Source of the DNA: a virus | Taxonomy: Duplodnaviria; Heunggongvirae; Uroviricota; Caudoviricetes | Direction: 5' to 3' (one strand) | Virus record (IMG/VR): IMGVR_UViG_2740892117_000010 | Location: 1 to 21,412 of that record | Length of the DNA stretch: 21,412 bases | In this document: piece by piece, positions 3,121 to 21,062 of the stretch | Numbering within the stretch: the stretch's first letter is position 1 | Layout of the letters: every line of letters starts with the position of its first letter | Program-made: the position numbers and the translations under genes | Notes under the pieces: model-generated | Told to the model about the DNA's origin: nothing | The model's input: the letters and a program-made list of their open reading frames with translations, nothing else | Database searches by the model: none

Positions 3121-3471
3121 TTAAGGTTGTGATTCCGGAGGAGTCTTCAGAGAACCAGTAATTCTTCCTGGTAGCTTTCCTTTGTAGGTTATCCAAACAT
3201 TCTGCGCATCTAAAATTACGGAGCGCTTTTCCGGCGACTGCTCGTCCCCTTCACATAACCCGGCAGCAACATCTAGGAAGACCTGTCTGATGCTCATTCT
3301 GGCTGCTGCCTCATAAAACTCCAGCGCGGCACCTTCAACACGGTCCAGCGAGATGTCCAGGTCAAAAATTTCACCGTCAAAGCGTTTTTTGTCCCGTAAC
3401 GCTAAAGTTACCGTAACTTTATTCTCAAAATTGCGGATCCCTTTCACAATCAGTTCATAGTTTTGAGTCAT
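3121..3471 (-). CDS. Hypothetical protein (116 aa) inserted between pinholin and endolysin
   Basis: ATG at 3471 with GGGGAGAG Shine-Dalgarno, starting 4 nt after the holin stop; no recognisable family. Confidence 0.6.
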   Translation of the reverse strand: MTQNYELIVKGIRNFENKVTVTLALRDKKRFDGEIFDLDISLDRVEGAALEFYEAAARMSIRQVFLDVAAGLCEGDEQSPEKRSVILDAQNVWITYKGKLPGRITGSLKTPPESQP

Positions 3472-3758: not shown

Positions 3759-4811
3759 TTATTTCCCCACCAGCTCATTTATCTCTTTCACTGTCTGATT
3801 AAACCGCTCTGACTCAAGCTCAACACCTAAGGCCCGACGCCCCAGCGCCATTGCTGCTTTTATTGTGGAACCGGATCCCATAAAAAAATCAGCAACCAGA
3901 TCACCTGGTCGACTACTGGCATTGATTATTTGCCTGAGCATATCCGCCGGTTTCTCACACGGATGTTTCCCCGGGTAGAACTGAACGGGTTTATGCATCC
4001 AGACATCGGTATAAGGCACGGAGACTGATACGGAGAAATAGCGCCGGAGAGATTTAAACTCATCCAGCAATTCAGAATATTTACGATTCAGTGAATCATA
4101 AGATGCCACCAGCTGGTGGTGTGGTTGTTCCAGTTGTTGTTCCTGAAACTTCTCTGCCGCTATACGGGAAAACAGTGCCTGTAACTTCCGATAGTCAGCC
4201 TCATTCGGCAACTGCCACTGACTGGCACCAAACCAGTGGGAAACCATATTTTTCTTACCTGTGGCTTCGGCAATTTGTTTTGCCGTTATACCCAGTTCGG
4301 CACGAGCATCCCTGAAATACGATATCAGCGGTGCCATTATGTGCTGTTTGAGTTCCCTTTCTTTTGCTGCATAGCCGTCACTTTTGCCGCGATATGGCCC
4401 CTGGTAATGTTCAGCAAACAGAACGCGCTCTGTGGCAGGAAAATATGCGCGCAGACTTTCTTTATTACACCCATTCCAACGTCCGGACGGCTTCGCCCAG
4501 ATGATATGGTTAAGCACGTTGAAACGTTCACGCATCATGATCTCAATATCAGATGCCAGGCGATGCCCACAGAACAGGTAAAGGCTTCCGGCAGGTTTTA
4601 ACACCCGCCAGAACTGGGCCAGACAGTGGTCCAGCCACTTAAGGTAATCTTCGTCCCCTTTCCACTGATTGTCCCAGCCGTTGGGTTTCACCTTGAAGTA
4701 CGGCGGATCGGTAACAATCAGGTCAATGGAATCATCAGGCAGGGACTGAATAAAATGCAGGCAATCAGCGTTGATTAAATCAACACTGTTTATTTTTACA
4801 GTATTTTTCAT
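3759..4811 (-). CDS. DNA methyltransferase (N6-adenine/N4-cytosine class, DPPY motif), orphan
   Basis: Contains IVTDPPYF (motif IV) and a C-terminal FxGSGST-like AdoMet motif; no adjacent restriction endonuclease. Confidence 0.85.
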
Positions 4812-16469: not shown

Positions 16470-16679
16470 ATGGCAAAACTAATGAAAGCGAGCCAATGGG
16501 GACGCCGTGAATTCTCTAATGGCTCAATTCCTGACAACCGAACGATAAAACGCTGGGTCGAGAACGGTCTGCTCATGGGGCGTATAGTGGACGGTTCTGT
16601 TTTTGTCTGCGAAACAGAAAAATGGGGAGTCGACTCAATGGTTAGTCAAGCTGTTCGCAAGTTAATAAATGAGGGATGA
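16470..16679 (+). CDS. xis: Excisionase (lambda Xis-like)
   Basis: About 69-aa basic protein with a TIKRWVENG...DGSVFVCE pattern like lambda Xis (RRWVRE...DGREYLF); stop overlaps the int start (ATGA). Confidence 0.7.
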   Translation: MAKLMKASQWGRREFSNGSIPDNRTIKRWVENGLLMGRIVDGSVFVCETEKWGVDSMVSQAVRKLINEG

Positions 16680-17860
16680 CCATGGCGGCAAGGCCACGTA
16701 AAAAAGAATACAGACATCTTCCTGATTATCTGGTTTTTGATAAAGATCGAGGTGTTTATAAATTCACACTTATTACCGGAAAAAAGAAAAATATAGGTAA
16801 GGATCGGGCAATAGCCGTTGCAATCGCCAGAGAGTACAACCTGAGGATGCGATCAGAATTATACCCATCAGTGGATAATCTTATTAGAGAATCTGGCGGG
16901 GTCACCGGAGAAGCAAAACCATTTGCTGAACATGTCGATCACATAATGGCCAGAATTATCGAAGACGAACGACCTTCCCAGAGTACCTTAGATGACTGGA
17001 AAAATGACGCTCTACGCGTAAAAGCATTTTTCGTAAATGTTCCGGCATGCGATATCGAACTTGAACACGTTAATGCCTACATCAACAAATATCATGCCAG
17101 CGCATCCGCAAATGTGCAGAACAGAAAGGTCAGCTTTCTTAAAAAGTTGTTCTCTTATGCGGTCGATGAATCACTAATGCAGGATAACCCGGCCATCAGA
17201 AAAAAAATGCGTAGGACTGATGAGAAGAAAAGACGGCGCCTGTCACTCGAGCATTTTATAGCTATCAGGCAGGCCGCTGCACCATGGTTAAGAACAGCAA
17301 TGGACCTAGCATTGCAGACTACACATGCACGACTCGAAGTATCGCGAATCCGTTACTCAATTCGCGAACCTAAAGACGGTTTATGTGGATGTGTTTGGTT
17401 CGAACAACCACAAAATGGCATATATGGTACACTATACATCCATAGGCAAAAAGTACAAAAAAAGGAGGCATCACATGTTGCAATACCAATTGGTGAAGAA
17501 TTGAAACGGATAATTGACAATAGCCGTGACAATGTGGCCAGTCCCTTTGTCGTTCATAGAATCCCAGAACGGCATGTTAAACGCAGTAAAGAGGTTTCGC
17601 ACCCAACTCAAGTTGCACCAGATTATTTGAGTCGGTCATTCTCTTCCGTGCGAGACAAACTCGGACTATGCAATCATCTAGCAATGGAACAAAGACCTAC
17701 ATTCCATGAAATAAGAGCTTTGGCAGCTCACCTATTTGATAAACAAGGGATTGATCCGCAGGGACGAATGGCACATAGCGATGCGAAATCTACTAAAATT
17801 TATACTAAAAATCATATAGATTGGATTGTTGTCCCTCATGGAGAAATTAAAACCGGTTAG
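16676..17860 (+). CDS. int: Tyrosine integrase, lambda Int family
   Basis: N-terminal arm-binding-like region; C-terminal catalytic region parallels lambda Int (PTFHEIRALAAHLF vs PTFHELRSLSARLY, then H...Y). Confidence 0.9.
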   Translation: MTMAARPRKKEYRHLPDYLVFDKDRGVYKFTLITGKKKNIGKDRAIAVAIAREYNLRMRSELYPSVDNLIRESGGVTGEAKPFAEHVDHIMARIIEDERPSQSTLDDWKNDALRVKAFFVNVPACDIELEHVNAYINKYHASASANVQNRKVSFLKKLFSYAVDESLMQDNPAIRKKMRRTDEKKRRRLSLEHFIAIRQAAAPWLRTAMDLALQTTHARLEVSRIRYSIREPKDGLCGCVWFEQPQNGIYGTLYIHRQKVQKKEASHVAIPIGEELKRIIDNSRDNVASPFVVHRIPERHVKRSKEVSHPTQVAPDYLSRSFSSVRDKLGLCNHLAMEQRPTFHEIRALAAHLFDKQGIDPQGRMAHSDAKSTKIYTKNHIDWIVVPHGEIKTG

Positions 17861-17997: not shown

Positions 17998-18954
17998 TTA
18001 TTTACCCTTATTATACTCTTCAGTAATCTTATTCATGGATGATATATATTTATCCAGCCCACCATAGTTGGCTATCATTCGAAATGAATTACGGTACTCT
18101 GCCATTTTCACATCATGATTAGTAATTCCACACCAGCCACAAACTTTATTTTCCATGTTTAAAGGCTCATAACATTTTTTACATTGCCTTGATGCAGGTA
18201 TTATATTGCCATTAATAAATTGGTGTGATTTGAGATTTTGAGATAAAAGAAATGGTGTAGTTGTTGTTTTTCCTATTACCATTTCGAAATATCTACATTT
18301 AGCCTTTTTAGCTAAAGATTGAATTTTCTGCTTTAATAAATCATTTGATTTGTGCCCAACTATAACTCCAGTTATACAATTAATCGGTACCGGAAGGAGC
18401 ATAAGATTGTCATTCAGTTTAGTAAGTGCTTTCTCATTAATTATTACGCGACGTTCCTGCTCATAACTCCAGCAAGTTTGTTTTGTCAAATATGCGGCTG
18501 TCATTATACAGGATTGTAGCCAGTAGATATAACGAGGTTTACAGATATGAAATGCTCTCGCCAGAATGTCTTCAATACCTGTATCTGGAGAATCTTTATA
18601 TTCAACATCTGCTATTGAACTATGATCCTGGAAGCCGATTTCATCCAAATACTTTTTAAACTTCTCCTCATTAATCTCTATTACAAAACCAGAAGAATTA
18701 CCTGCATAATGTGCCCACATAGGTGGTATCACAGGGCTTTTCGTAAAACAAGTTGCTGGTTGTTTTGTAACCATGCCAATCATTTCATTGTAAAATGCTA
18801 ACTCATCAGAACCGCGATTAAAATCAATAGTAAGGAAAAACTCATAGGGATCATTATATTCATGTAAATGAGAGAATTTTATTCCTATATGTGTTTCATC
18901 CATCATCAATTTATCAATTATATCCGCTCCCATAAACTTATACAAATTGGTCAT
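17998..18954 (-). CDS. DUF2971-like protein with C-terminal CxxC...CxxC zinc ribbon; AT-rich cargo gene
   Basis: ATG at 18954 with AAGGAG Shine-Dalgarno; N-terminal NLYKF...FSHLHEYNDPYEF resembles the DUF2971 signature as remembered; C-terminal CKKCYEPLNMENKVCGWCG; markedly AT-rich versus flanks. Confidence 0.6.
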   Translation of the reverse strand: MTNLYKFMGADIIDKLMMDETHIGIKFSHLHEYNDPYEFFLTIDFNRGSDELAFYNEMIGMVTKQPATCFTKSPVIPPMWAHYAGNSSGFVIEINEEKFKKYLDEIGFQDHSSIADVEYKDSPDTGIEDILARAFHICKPRYIYWLQSCIMTAAYLTKQTCWSYEQERRVIINEKALTKLNDNLMLLPVPINCITGVIVGHKSNDLLKQKIQSLAKKAKCRYFEMVIGKTTTTPFLLSQNLKSHQFINGNIIPASRQCKKCYEPLNMENKVCGWCGITNHDVKMAEYRNSFRMIANYGGLDKYISSMNKITEEYNKGK

Positions 18955-19050
18955 ATACAACTCCTTTTTTATAAAATAACATTTTAAATCATATGATTAT
19001 GGAGGCACAAAATCCAGTAATTAGTTTTCAAGCCGGTTGTGATGTAGTTC

Positions 19051-19403
19051 GAGGACAAACTGAAACGTATTATTGATAACAGTCGCGATAACGTTGCCTG
19101 CCCGTATATCGTTCACCGTATACCGAGCGTAATAACAAACGCAGTAAAGAGGTATCCGCACCTGCCTATCTTAGCCATACTTTTCATTGCCCCGTGATTC
19201 GTTAGGCTTGTGTAATAATTTGACGATGGAGCTGCGCCCCCACATTCCACAAAATACGCGCACTAGCTGCATTTTGTTTGATAAACAGGGAGTAGACCAC
19301 AAGGGCTCATAGCCCACAGCGACGCGAAATCAACGAAAATTTATACGCGGAACCATATGATTGGGTAATGCTTCCGCACGGTGAAATTAAATACAATGCA
19401 TAA
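19051..19403 (+). pseudogene. Decayed 3' remnant of a second lambda-family integrase
   Basis: Roughly 70 percent nucleotide similarity by eye to int 17497-17860 (KLKRIIDNSRDNVA..., ...PHGEIK), with frameshifts and premature stops. Confidence 0.75.
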
Positions 19404-19436
19404 TAAAATTGGCCTCAAATGAGGCCAATTTTGGGG
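19404..19436. terminator. Bidirectional intrinsic terminator (perfect 12-bp inverted repeat AAATTGGCCTCA / TGAGGCCAATTT)
   Basis: Hairpin flanked by T-runs on both strands, between the integrase remnant and the convergent two-gene operon. Confidence 0.75.
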
Positions 19437-19437
19437 A

Positions 19438-19821
19438 TTAGGACGCTTTAGACTTGGTCATATTAGCGCAACGCTGGATTAATTTCTCTGCAGTCTTAAT
19501 CGCGGTGCTTGATTGGGTTGGCGTAATAGTGTCGTTAAGTCTGTAATCACAAACTATTCTCTGATCCTTAAGCGATTGAAGAGCATACCCCAAACCAATT
19601 AAGTCTCTTTTTTCAAAAGGTTCGTTACCCTTCCAAGCATCGTTAACAAGATAGTCAATGAGGCCTTGGTGACTTTCTTTCGGCCCCATGGTCAAACACG
19701 GAAGTACGTGGTGATAAGCACCATAATACGCACGTGCGACAGCGTTTCTGTAACCAATTTCGTCGTTACGCTTTTCACAATCTTTTGCGAAAGCGATAAA
19801 ATCGGAACTATTAACTGGCAC
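19438..19821 (-). CDS. Hypothetical protein (127 aa from GTG 19821; 144 aa if TTG 19872), possible HEPN-like helical fold
   Basis: GTG at 19821 with GGAGGA 8 nt upstream, overlapping the upstream stop; RAYYGAYHH has R-x6-H spacing but family assignment is speculative. Confidence 0.55.
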   Translation of the reverse strand: MPVNSSDFIAFAKDCEKRNDEIGYRNAVARAYYGAYHHVLPCLTMGPKESHQGLIDYLVNDAWKGNEPFEKRDLIGLGYALQSLKDQRIVCDYRLNDTITPTQSSTAIKTAEKLIQRCANMTKSKAS

Positions 19822-20578
19822 GCGCAGGTTCCTCCAAACGCCCTTCAAACCATACGCTGAAGGGTTTTCCAATCAAACTTTCATTTTCTGCAAGAGAAAA
19901 TGCTATATCCAAGTTCATATCAGAGAGAACATCAGAATCTTCAGTATTAACTGCCATGACATATGATGACGTACGCTCTTCAGGGATAGAGCAGAAAGAC
20001 ATAGCAACAGGACTAACTTTATGGTCAGCCATGATATCCACTATGCGGTTTGCAATATCCTGTAGTTCTTCATCAGTAATTCCAGTTGCACTTTTGAAGG
20101 TCGTGGATTGGGCCAGTGCTGTGGCTGCGAGGTGCTTAACCAATTCAGCCTCCTTTTCATCTACCATACTTATCAATCTCTCAGCATAGTAGAGCGCTTT
20201 GTCAATACGCCCCAAGAACAAGTTAGCTTCCCATGCATGGGACAGCATCGTAGGGGAGTTATAACGTTCAACTAATCGATTTACCACTTGTTCAACTTCA
20301 CGGAAGCTGCCGTAATCGTTGAGATAAACTACATAATTTTGAGCAATGATCAGGTTGTTATGCTTCAATGCTTCTTCAAAGAATGCAACTGCAGTATCTT
20401 TACGCCCAAAAGCACCATTAGCCAACGCTTTGAGATAGTCCTCAGATGCGCTGTCGCGCAACTTTTCTATATCTCTGATATAACGAAAATATTGCATTTC
20501 GGATATCGTATTCCGAGCCGCAAGAATATCGATTAATTCACTGCTGATTTCGTTCGCTTTTAGCGCCGGCTGTGGCAT
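19811..20578 (-). CDS. Hypothetical alpha-helical protein (255 aa), first gene of a two-gene operon
   Basis: ATG at 20578 with AAAGGTGA Shine-Dalgarno; TPR-like helical composition by eye; no catalytic motif recognised. Confidence 0.6.
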   Translation of the reverse strand: MPQPALKANEISSELIDILAARNTISEMQYFRYIRDIEKLRDSASEDYLKALANGAFGRKDTAVAFFEEALKHNNLIIAQNYVVYLNDYGSFREVEQVVNRLVERYNSPTMLSHAWEANLFLGRIDKALYYAERLISMVDEKEAELVKHLAATALAQSTTFKSATGITDEELQDIANRIVDIMADHKVSPVAMSFCSIPEERTSSYVMAVNTEDSDVLSDMNLDIAFSLAENESLIGKPFSVWFEGRLEEPARAS

Positions 20579-20773
20579 TAAATCACCTTTAAGAAACTAC
20601 GAGCTATGTTGCTTTAACTTCTGCAATCTTAGTAAGTTTTAGAAGGTTACATGAAGATGATCGTAATTTCCAATGGGCTAAAATGGTCAAAAAGCGAAGT
20701 AATTGTTGACTTTACGCCAAACATAAAACAATCAACAAAAAACATGTAGCCGCTCGGAAACTTAGGAGATAAG

Positions 20774-20802
20774 TCTGTGGATAACTAAATCTTATCCACA
20801 GA
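20774..20802. promoter_or_regulatory. Head-to-head pair of consensus DnaA boxes (TTATCCACA) forming an 11-bp inverted repeat
   Basis: TCTGTGGATAA - 7 bp - TTATCCACAGA in the AT-rich upstream region of the 19438-20578 operon. Confidence 0.5.
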
Positions 20803-21012
20803 AAAGCATATTAGAAGCAAATCAAAAAGTGCTATAGACGGAACCTATTAATATAGTAATGCTCCAAAAACTGACCATTTAGGAGTGGGGAAAAATCTCT
20901 CTTAACTCATTGATGTATATAGCGTGAATTTTGCGAATTATGCACTGTTTGCGCACACAGTGAAACACCCTGCCAGCCCAGCAATGGCGCGGTCTCCAGC
21001 GTTTCAGGCGCG

Positions 21013-21062
21013 GTGACATGGGGTGTCGGGGGTCGGAGGTTCAAATCCTCTCGTGCCGACCA
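21013..21062 (+). other. att core: 3' fragment of tRNA-Pro (proL-like; anticodon arm to CCA), not a complete tRNA
   Basis: ...ATGGGGTGTCGGGGGTCGGAGGTTCAAATCCTCTCGTGCCGACCA matches the remembered proL 3' half (T-arm, acceptor 3' strand, CCA); no complementary 5' acceptor strand (CGGCACG) upstream. Confidence 0.75.

Follow-up and report, generated by a model that had tools for sequence, protein, structure and literature searches.

What role does a perfect palindrome composed of two DnaA boxes play upstream of an uncharacterised pair of phage genes? The question is raised by positions 20774–20802 of a 21,412-nucleotide stretch of a Caudoviricetes genome (IMG/VR virus record IMGVR_UViG_2740892117_000010, positions 1 to 21,412; hereafter the window, meaning the whole stretch analysed), where the palindrome is situated some 200 bp upstream of two minus-strand genes that form an operon (19438–20578). 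A first-pass annotation had read it either as a site of DnaA-responsive regulation or as a palindromic operator for some other regulator. Our comparative analysis leads us to give a probability of roughly 0.5 to the reading that the palindrome is the core of a DnaA-bound cis-regulatory module belonging to a mobile TPR-HEPN moron cassette. The occupancy of this module by DnaA, an effect on transcription and the direction of that effect are predictions drawn from sequence.

The palindrome consists of TCTGTGGATAA (20774–20784), a spacer CTAAATC (20785–20791) and TTATCCACAGA (20792–20802), as read from the window sequence. The arms form a perfect, fully complementary 11-bp inverted repeat, which has no inward extension because positions 20785 and 20791 are both C. 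Both arms match the high-affinity DnaA box consensus TTATNCACA in its best form, TTATCCACA, and they are the only two exact copies of this 9-mer in the window, for which simple arithmetic gives an expectation of ~0.16 by chance over both strands. The earlier description of an inverted pair of perfect boxes with a 7-bp spacer is therefore exact. The context of the proximal arm, agTTATCCACAg, is identical to that of R4 in the E. coli K-12 oriC (R4, gagTTATCCACAgta; R1, ttgTTATCCACAggg), with G on both flanks as in R1 and R4; the distal arm has C in place of G on its 5' side. No further box with two or fewer mismatches is found in the window's own regulatory region besides the two arms.

Comparison of genomes shows that the palindrome travels with the operon. 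Of 5426 complete E. coli genomes, 54 carry the whole intergenic region, nearly all with ≥99% identity; carriers of the locus include ST131 CCUG 73778 (NZ_CP041337.1) and FORC_042. A single E. coli copy has diverged (T309.Ta3, 93% identical), and it retains both arms unchanged, with two substitutions in the spacer and many in the left flank. Among viral contigs, genomes and metagenomes, the palindrome is located at −222/−206 (±3) from the ATG of gene 1 homologues that are 93, 80, 64, 63 and 48–49% identical, within sequence that is otherwise strongly diverged, and operon homologues with as little as 37% protein identity still have it upstream. Species-representative genomes and metagenomes contributed few extra lineages. 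In Yersinia and Hafnia prophages the operon is found between the antiterminator Q and lysis genes; the upstream region there contains the block ATAGCACTTTTTG, followed by the palindrome and then a GTCAA block, and the sequence beyond ATAGCACTTTTTG is unrelated. The two contexts share homology from ATAGCAC (window position 20835) as far as the HEPN stop codon, which defines the unit as a ~1.4-kb moron cassette (20835 to 19438) with its own control region. A Lelliottia copy of the cassette adjoins an unrelated integrase. The placement of the palindrome in the regulatory region of the 19438–20578 operon, as first proposed, is thus one that is kept across lineages and prophage sites. A chance origin of the palindrome can be rejected on the rarity of the box, the conservation of the arms in T309.Ta3 and the recurrence upstream of homologues. 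A hairpin-ended mobile element of the IS200/IS605 type was also considered and rejected: the hairpins at the 3' end vary from lineage to lineage and bear no relation to the palindrome, and homology ends at the HEPN stop codon.

Which part of this element would DnaA recognise? Chromatin immunoprecipitation sequencing (ChIP-seq) of DnaA in K-12 detected 16 bound regions in all, nearly all associated with replication or nucleotide metabolism, and binding in vivo needs tandem boxes 2–3 bp apart, with a 1-bp insertion abolishing it (Stringer, Fitzgerald, Wade 2024, PMC11317965). Under this rule the inverted perfect pair alone is not predictive of DnaA occupancy, and the relevant feature is therefore the proximal arm together with a weak box that follows it (20784–20764), which the first-pass annotation had not noted. 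Read on the minus strand, TTATCCACA-gac-TTATCTCCT has 15 of 18 matches and is the best double box in the window. It has the sequence geometry of the in vivo 'double DnaA box' (same orientation, 3 bp), with a weak second box. Comparison across 15 loci gives a match at 5.7 of 8 informative positions for the same-orientation 9-mer located exactly 3 bp beyond the proximal arm, versus ~2 at other offsets, and no comparable tandem signal beyond the distal arm. In every lineage that keeps the upstream region, a box-like 9-mer is situated exactly 3 bp after the proximal arm, and in four loci (L050, L054, L299 and L305) it is a strict TTAT[G/A]CACA.

The boxes differ in how well they are kept. The proximal arm is the best conserved, being TTATCCACA in 11 of the 15 aligned loci. 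The distal arm is perfect in the window, T309.Ta3, L047, L049, L051 and L303; four lineages have TTACCCACA in its place, and other lineages TTATCAACA, TTATCGACA or TTATTAACA. Lineages with TTATnAACA arms have a strict adjacent third box, TTATGCACA or TTATACACA, these two differing only at the free N position. Boxes are also present at other places: Brenneria has an additional perfect box at −175, Lonsdalea has TTATACACA at −170, and in Yersinia the pair AGTTATCCACT-5 bp-TGTGGATAA overlaps the −35 element of a probable promoter. At least one box within one mismatch of TTATCCACA is present in every lineage with this upstream region. Tandem geometry combined with site turnover is a prediction of a DnaA site, and would be expected neither of a hairpin nor of a generic palindromic operator.

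In the direction of the operon the cluster comprises an inverted box, then after 7 bp a perfect box flanked much as in oriC R4, and after a further 3 bp a weak box. If DnaA does bind, the perfect and weak boxes would act as a tandem double box, the unit occupied by a DnaA dimer in vivo, and the inverted perfect box could hold a further DnaA protomer back to back. The cassette would in this way borrow the universally conserved host DnaA as a transcription factor, which we consider most likely because it encodes no recognisable DNA-binding protein and moves among Enterobacterales prophages. The level of free DnaA would then set the expression of what is probably a toxin or defence pair. We lean towards repression of the operon by DnaA, because the consensus box pair of Yersinia overlaps the −35 element of the probable promoter. 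The original proposal of DnaA-responsive regulation thus gains from the tandem third box, the turnover of boxes and the R4-like flanks; its emphasis on the perfect inverted pair needs qualifying, since that pair is not the unit that predicts occupancy.

A number of observations weigh against DnaA control. Within the window alone a 6/9 partner beside a perfect box is not significant (~0.1 by chance, an estimate), and a 15/18 double box is reached by 6% of shuffles. In K-12 only 13 of 32 perfect TTATCCACA boxes are bound in ChIP-seq, most not being detectably bound, and the weakest ChIP signals (4–14 fold; PMC11317965) come from pairs in which the consensus box precedes the weak one. The box cluster lies ~60–150 bp upstream of the two conserved candidate promoters. 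Operon copies in Serratia, Pectobacterium and Xenorhabdus have a different upstream region without these boxes, and the lineages that do have them are few, comprising ~6–7 independent clades that are related. The arms moreover change together at box positions 5–6: CC/GG in most lineages, CA/TG in Hafnia and TA/TA in Pseudocitrobacter. Pairing between the arms is kept in 94.7% of cells, with four pairs changing on both sides, and the covariation score is reached by 1 of 500 shuffles. Such symmetric covariation is not required by DnaA monomers and would fit a dimeric regulator or a hairpin. Four lineages have A at box position 6, where the published DnaA consensus has an invariant C. Symmetric change can, however, arise by template switching within quasi-palindromes without selection, and the symmetry of the arms could have this origin. 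The non-consensus variants TTATCAACA and TTATTAACA may be ordinary weak DnaA sites, because in T5-like phages both are reported to have a consensus box as partner at a distance of 3 bp (preprint 10.1101/866236), and AACA is likewise the ending of the upstream half in the bound datA and nrdD pairs (PMC11317965).

The same covariation is the starting point for the view that the palindrome is a dyad operator, TGTnnATAA-N7-TTATnnACA, of a dimeric regulator other than DnaA, encoded by host, phage or cassette; the arms of the E. coli lineage would then resemble DnaA boxes through partial convergence. Consistent with this, the arms stay complementary in Pseudocitrobacter (TGTTAATAA/TTATTAACA) and Hafnia (TGTTGATAA/TTATCAACA), the ATAA-N7-TTAT cores are 11 bp apart centre to centre, which is one helical turn, and box position 6, fixed in the published DnaA consensus, varies here. 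An operator of this kind does not predict a one-sided third box at exactly 3 bp in tandem, nor strict TTATNCACA boxes varying only at the N position, and it leaves the convergent Yersinia pair with its DARS1 box I–II layout unexplained. Neither operon protein has a recognisable DNA-binding fold, the cassette occurs in different phages and genera, so that a co-travelling regulator is lacking, and template switching offers another source of the symmetry. An informal comparison with other E. coli operators and sites (LexA, CRP, Fur, TyrR, DeoR, NagC, IHF, Fis, sigma-54 and lambda nut boxA/boxB) showed no fit to any of them in spacing or conserved positions. We consider a non-DnaA operator unlikely; of the earlier suggestion, the symmetry of the arms stands, and the third box and strict boxes are what it fails to predict. 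The compensatory changes would equally suit a transcribed hairpin in a long 5' leader, acting as a stabiliser, processing site, pause or insulator signal. When folded as RNA, the 66-nt hairpin stretch is stable (−15.7 kcal/mol, z = −3.6, with 0 of 200 shuffles as good), the TGTGGGTAA variant of four lineages allows G-U pairing, though only on the coding strand, and the promoter-like site at 20877–20850 would place the hairpin at ~+41 to +69. That site, however, is outside the conserved cassette and is not itself conserved, and the conserved promoter-like blocks are downstream of the hairpin. The window has no U-tract here (the coding strand has the tail ACUUAUCUCC, the opposite strand AAAGCAU) and no Rfam family matches the palindrome. 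A hairpin also does not explain the 3-bp tandem box and the extra consensus boxes, and in Lonsdalea the stem is broken, yet TTATACACA is retained nearby. This makes a leader hairpin distinctly improbable. An intrinsic terminator was rejected as a separate candidate: the scan did not call one, only 4 of 11 stem pairs are G-C and the U-tract is absent.

A further possibility keeps DnaA as the ligand and dispenses with promoter control, the site being a roadblock or insulator at the cassette edge, or a sink resembling DARS or datA; as a sink, it would let the phage perturb host initiation once amplified by phage replication. The cluster does lie close to the 5' end of the cassette, 25–30 bp in from its edge, and a long way from the candidate promoters; transcription arriving from either side would be blocked by an inverted pair, and DnaA roadblocks are described in literature cited by the ChIP-seq study (PMC11317965). 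Perfect inverted pairs are moreover common in viral contigs, and T5-like phages have conserved box pairs that include TTATCAACA and TTATTAACA (preprint 10.1101/866236). We nevertheless regard this as rather improbable, given a geometry unlike that of DARS (divergent across 7 bp versus convergent across 5 bp), the negligible sink that two or three boxes would provide at single copy, the association of the element with the operon and not with the phage backbone, and the hindrance that a roadblock in the Q–lysis context would pose to the phage's own late transcription. The distribution of the element also bears on whether it might be an arm-type or accessory site in attP (the phage attachment site, att), used by the integrase, Xis or IHF complex of the tRNA-Pro phage. 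Its location between int and the att core, 229 bp from the core start (21017), and the nearby IHF-like site (20903–20914) would suit such a function. Against this, an APEC O78 phage that shares the att arm and has an integrase 93% identical has different cargo and no palindrome, and the palindrome is kept beside the unrelated integrase in Lelliottia and at the Q–lysis site, far from any att. Arm homology among phages ends at 20886, and the distance from palindrome to core varies, with a 13-bp deletion in L049. An attP role is thereby effectively refuted, its remaining probability being negligible.

Three candidate promoters can be proposed for the operon (Table 1). P0 is outside the cassette edge and is not conserved beyond the E. 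coli lineage; were it active, transcription would start near 20843 and the boxes would be at ~+43 to +80 of the transcript. P2 is a weak match, below the threshold of the consensus scan, and, with a predicted start near 20702, would place the boxes at ~−60 to −100. In P1, TTGGAAA and TGTA..CT are invariant or nearly so, and its equivalents are nearer to consensus in Yersinia (TGGATA-17-TAATAT) and Hafnia (ATGGAA..TAGTAT). Transcription from P1 would start near 20637, giving a predicted 5' untranslated region (UTR) of ~59 nt, and if P1 is real the boxes are at ~−125 to −165. A small conserved open reading frame between palindrome and gene was considered and rejected, the 32-aa frame at 20647–20745 not being conserved. 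Other blocks in the region include a second palindrome, GTCAA-N3-TTGAC, situated between boxes and gene in most lineages (A4 columns 184–196; L047, L049, L055 and others), of which the GTCAA half alone survives in the window (20705–20710). There are also invariant blocks in the presumed 5' UTR, AAGATTGC at 20630–20623 and AAAGCAAC near 20615–20608.

Table 1. Coordinates of the palindrome, its control region, the operon and neighbouring prophage features in the window.
Feature	Position	Strand	Remarks
Distal arm, perfect DnaA box TTATCCACA (context atcTTATCCACAgaa)	20792..20800	+	Oriented away from the operon
Spacer between arms, 7 bp	20785..20791	.	Length kept (8 bp in one clade), sequence not
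Proximal arm, perfect DnaA box TTATCCACA (context tagTTATCCACAgac)	20776..20784	-	Oriented toward the operon
Weak third box TTATCTCCT, 6/9 matches	20764..20772	-	3 bp past the proximal arm, same orientation
Conserved block ATAGCACTTTTTG	20823..20835	-	Marks 5' edge of mobile cassette; alignments A2 and A4
Promoter-like site P0, TGGTCA-16-TATATT	20850..20877	-	Consensus scan, 9/12 matches
Candidate promoter P2, TGTTGA-17-TAAAGT	20709..20737	-	Predicted from conserved blocks TGTTGAT and AAAGTCAA, alignment A4
Candidate promoter P1, TTGGAA-18-TAACCT	20644..20673	-	Predicted from conserved blocks
Gene 1, 255-aa TPR-fold protein	19811..20578	-	Weak sub-threshold Pfam TPR hits
Gene 2, 127-aa HEPN-fold protein	19438..19821	-	RefSeq start
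Perfect 13-bp palindrome AAAATTGGCCTCA..TGAGGCCAATTTT	19405..19432	.	Between operon and integrase remnant
C-terminal integrase remnant	~19055-19404		
DUF2971 gene	17998-18960	-	Matches candidate defence family PDC-S31 (PADLOC)
Integrase	16676-17860	+	
attP arm of the phage family, 105 bp, conserved	20886..20990	.	Partial matches beside tRNA-Pro elsewhere
att core, 46 bp identical to 3' part of proL	21017..21062	+	Alignment with K-12 proL

The two operon proteins were characterised from their predicted structures. The AlphaFold2 model of the gene 1 product (pLDDT 92, the predicted local distance difference test score) contains a TPR-like helical array and a small C-terminal beta-beta-alpha-beta domain, and a structure search against the PDB matched TPR proteins only. 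The family is small, with 27 clusters, and every named source is in the Enterobacterales. Gene 2 overlaps gene 1 by 11 nt and most likely starts at the GTG at 19821, giving the 127 aa annotated in RefSeq, which refines the coordinates of the operon. Its AlphaFold2 model (pLDDT 91) has HEPN proteins as its best PDB hits, led by 2hsb (TM-score 0.70), with weak E-values. The Pfam HEPN hit is below threshold, and homologues are named UPF0332 or HEPN in some databases. The invariant residues R30 and H37 fit an Rx6H form (RAYYGAYH) of the catalytic Rx4-6H motif but sit in helix 2, and the usual C-terminal position of the motif has R88xxxD92Y93. No DNA-binding fold was recognised in either protein by comparison of the AlphaFold2 models with the PDB, and PADLOC gave no hit for either, matching only the neighbouring DUF2971 gene. 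Downstream of the operon, the palindrome at 19405–19432 is likely to be a bidirectional terminator.

The window covers the right end of an E. coli prophage of lambdoid, CPS-53-like type in proL (tRNA-Pro), beside yejO and narP; in K-12 the locus is absent and proL is directly followed by yejO. From left to right the region contains yfdR, the integrase, the DUF2971 gene, the integrase remnant, the operon, the palindrome, the att arm and the proL block. The leftmost of these listed features is the gene annotated as yfdR in near-identical RefSeq genomes, and the paper on YfdR and DnaA to which the first-pass annotation alluded does exist (PMC4776307). The replication-sensing theme for the whole prophage that was built on it is not supported by the present results, because the cassette is mobile, occurring beside an unrelated integrase and at a different prophage site, and nothing links the YfdR–DnaA interaction to the cassette. 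Between integrase and operon, 17998–19404 forms a second cargo module, made up of the DUF2971 gene and the remnant, which is the frameshifted C-terminal part of a second integrase gene (~72% identical). Such an arrangement points to recombination having joined two int-plus-cargo ends, and to the gap between int and att as a cargo hot spot.

The att arm at 20886–20990 is outside the cassette and contains an IHF-consensus-like ATCAATGAGTTA on the minus strand (20903–20914). ARAGORN and Rfam called no tRNA at or near the site, and the proL block is therefore a displaced 3' part fused to phage DNA. The resulting pseudo-tRNA-Pro (20985–21062) has 3' 46 nt identical to proL and a 5' part made of phage DNA; its acceptor stem could pair TGGCGCG with CGTGCCG (two G-U pairs), and the D-arm is absent. 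RefSeq labels this copy tRNA-Pro in some genomes (L001, L003) and not in others. The IHF-consensus-like att-arm motif CTATACATCAATGAATTAGG is found again between operon and integrase in L055 (~4225–4250) and L047 (~4200–4230), these downstream copies, in Klebsiella and one viral contig, being 3' of the HEPN gene. The cassette accordingly looks as if it was inserted into, or is flanked by, duplicated att-arm sequence. Among isolated phages none was found with the cassette, and only the att arm was matched.

DnaA boxes are also found well beyond the control region. One-mismatch boxes are enriched throughout the prophage, with 13 matches at ≤1 mismatch in the window versus 5.1 ± 2.0 in shuffles, a count reached by 0 shuffles; positions include 1169, 2628, 3189, 5361, 7711, 7878, 11149, 11408, 13659, 13877 and 16870. 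A second tandem pair, TTATCCAAA-ca-TTCTGCGCA (14/18), is located at 3189–3208. In the Yersinia enterocolitica prophage L284 the convergent pair reads AGTTATCCACT-GGGTG-TGTGGATAA (~2617–2639, −124 to −102 from the ATG), and Hafnia retains only the first box of this type of pair. Scans of viral contigs for inverted pairs returned at least 120 matches per orientation, and the exact 7-bp back-to-back pattern is present in 34 contigs. We rejected the idea that 7-bp back-to-back spacing is a special DnaA architecture: among the matches listed there are many spacings in both orientations, and 7 bp is unremarkable. Many environmental viral contigs (L005, L010, L035, L038, L015–L019 and others) contain dense clusters of perfect boxes, the densest having up to six or more within 100 bp in both orientations. 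These clusters may be phage origins or DnaA-handling elements.

DnaA control of promoters is already a known kind of regulation; what would be new here is its location on a mobile cargo cassette. If the DnaA-bound module is real, mobile elements can plug cargo genes into a host cell-cycle regulator without a regulator of their own, and there would be a handle on the uncharacterised TPR-HEPN pair, which occupies two classical prophage hot spots for morons and defence genes (int–att and Q–lysis). The comparative series also provides natural variants for working out DnaA-binding rules, including perfect boxes, TTATnAACA boxes, the 3-bp tandem and the DARS1-like pair. The finding would gain in importance should the operon turn out to encode a toxin or defence module gated by DnaA. 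A stronger version of this idea, which we think doubtful, is that the pair is a toxin or abortive-infection module regulated only by host DnaA, so that DnaA would serve as a defence sensor for the prophage. The module would be held in check at normal levels of free DnaA and released upon titration or destruction of DnaA, for which the box-rich DNA of an incoming T5-like phage, degradation of host DNA or replication arrest might be the triggers. No relevant work connecting DnaA boxes with prophage defence emerged from a search of the literature.

The element can be compared with four known systems. Like the operators of type II toxin–antitoxin and defence systems, it is a perfect palindrome upstream of two overlapping genes, one of which has a toxin-type fold (HEPN). 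Those operators overlap the promoter and are bound by an antitoxin of the helix-turn-helix, ribbon-helix-helix or AbrB type, whereas here no DNA-binding fold was found in either protein and the palindrome is well upstream of the candidate promoters. The DnaA/'DnaA*' pairs at the injection stop of T5-like phages (preprint 10.1101/866236) are likewise phage-borne, conserved, 3 bp apart and arranged in inverted repeats, and they share variants seen here (TTATCCACA, TTATGCACA and the non-consensus TTATCAACA and TTATTAACA). What sets them apart is their setting, a non-coding terminal repeat in a virulent phage, as well as their number, eight boxes, and the part in DNA entry that has been proposed for them; the involvement of DnaA in T5-like phages is itself only a hypothesis.

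The DnaA-reactivating sequences (DARS) provide a closer parallel. The DARS1/DARS2 core also has three DnaA boxes, two in tandem 3 bp apart and one opposite. Boxes I and II are convergent with a 5-bp spacer and box III is in tandem with II (Sugiyama et al. 2019, PMC6868365), and DARS1 in the K-12 sequence reads TTATCCACT-5-TGTGGATAA-3-TGTGTATTA. In DARS, 5 bp thus separate the inverted box from the ACA end of the consensus box (convergent), whereas in the window the inverted box is on the TTAT side, 7 bp away (divergent). This divergent 7-bp geometry rules out a DARS-like element in the window, and ADP-release activity is not inferable. The Yersinia pair AGTTATCCACT-5 bp-TGTGGATAA has both the layout and the sequences of K-12 DARS1 boxes I–II, with a different 5-bp spacer.

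The closest known system is the double DnaA box found at dnaA, nrdA, rpoH, polA, purH, nrdD and datA (Stringer, Fitzgerald, Wade 2024, PMC11317965). The window site differs from these in being on a mobile prophage cassette and not at a core gene of replication or nucleotide metabolism, and in adding a perfect inverted box 7 bp away. It resembles them in having a consensus TTATCCACA in tandem with a weaker box 3 bp away. The window pair gTTATCCACAgacTTATCTCCTa (15/18) is like that of the dnaA promoter, tTTATCCACAggaCTTTCCAGAa (15/18), and by a count from Table 1 of that study its score equals those of the ChIP-bound dnaA-promoter and datA pairs (PMC11317965). The TTATnAACA-3 bp-TTATnCACA arrangement of its relatives resembles the pairs at datA (TTGTAAACAgagTTATCCACA) and nrdD.

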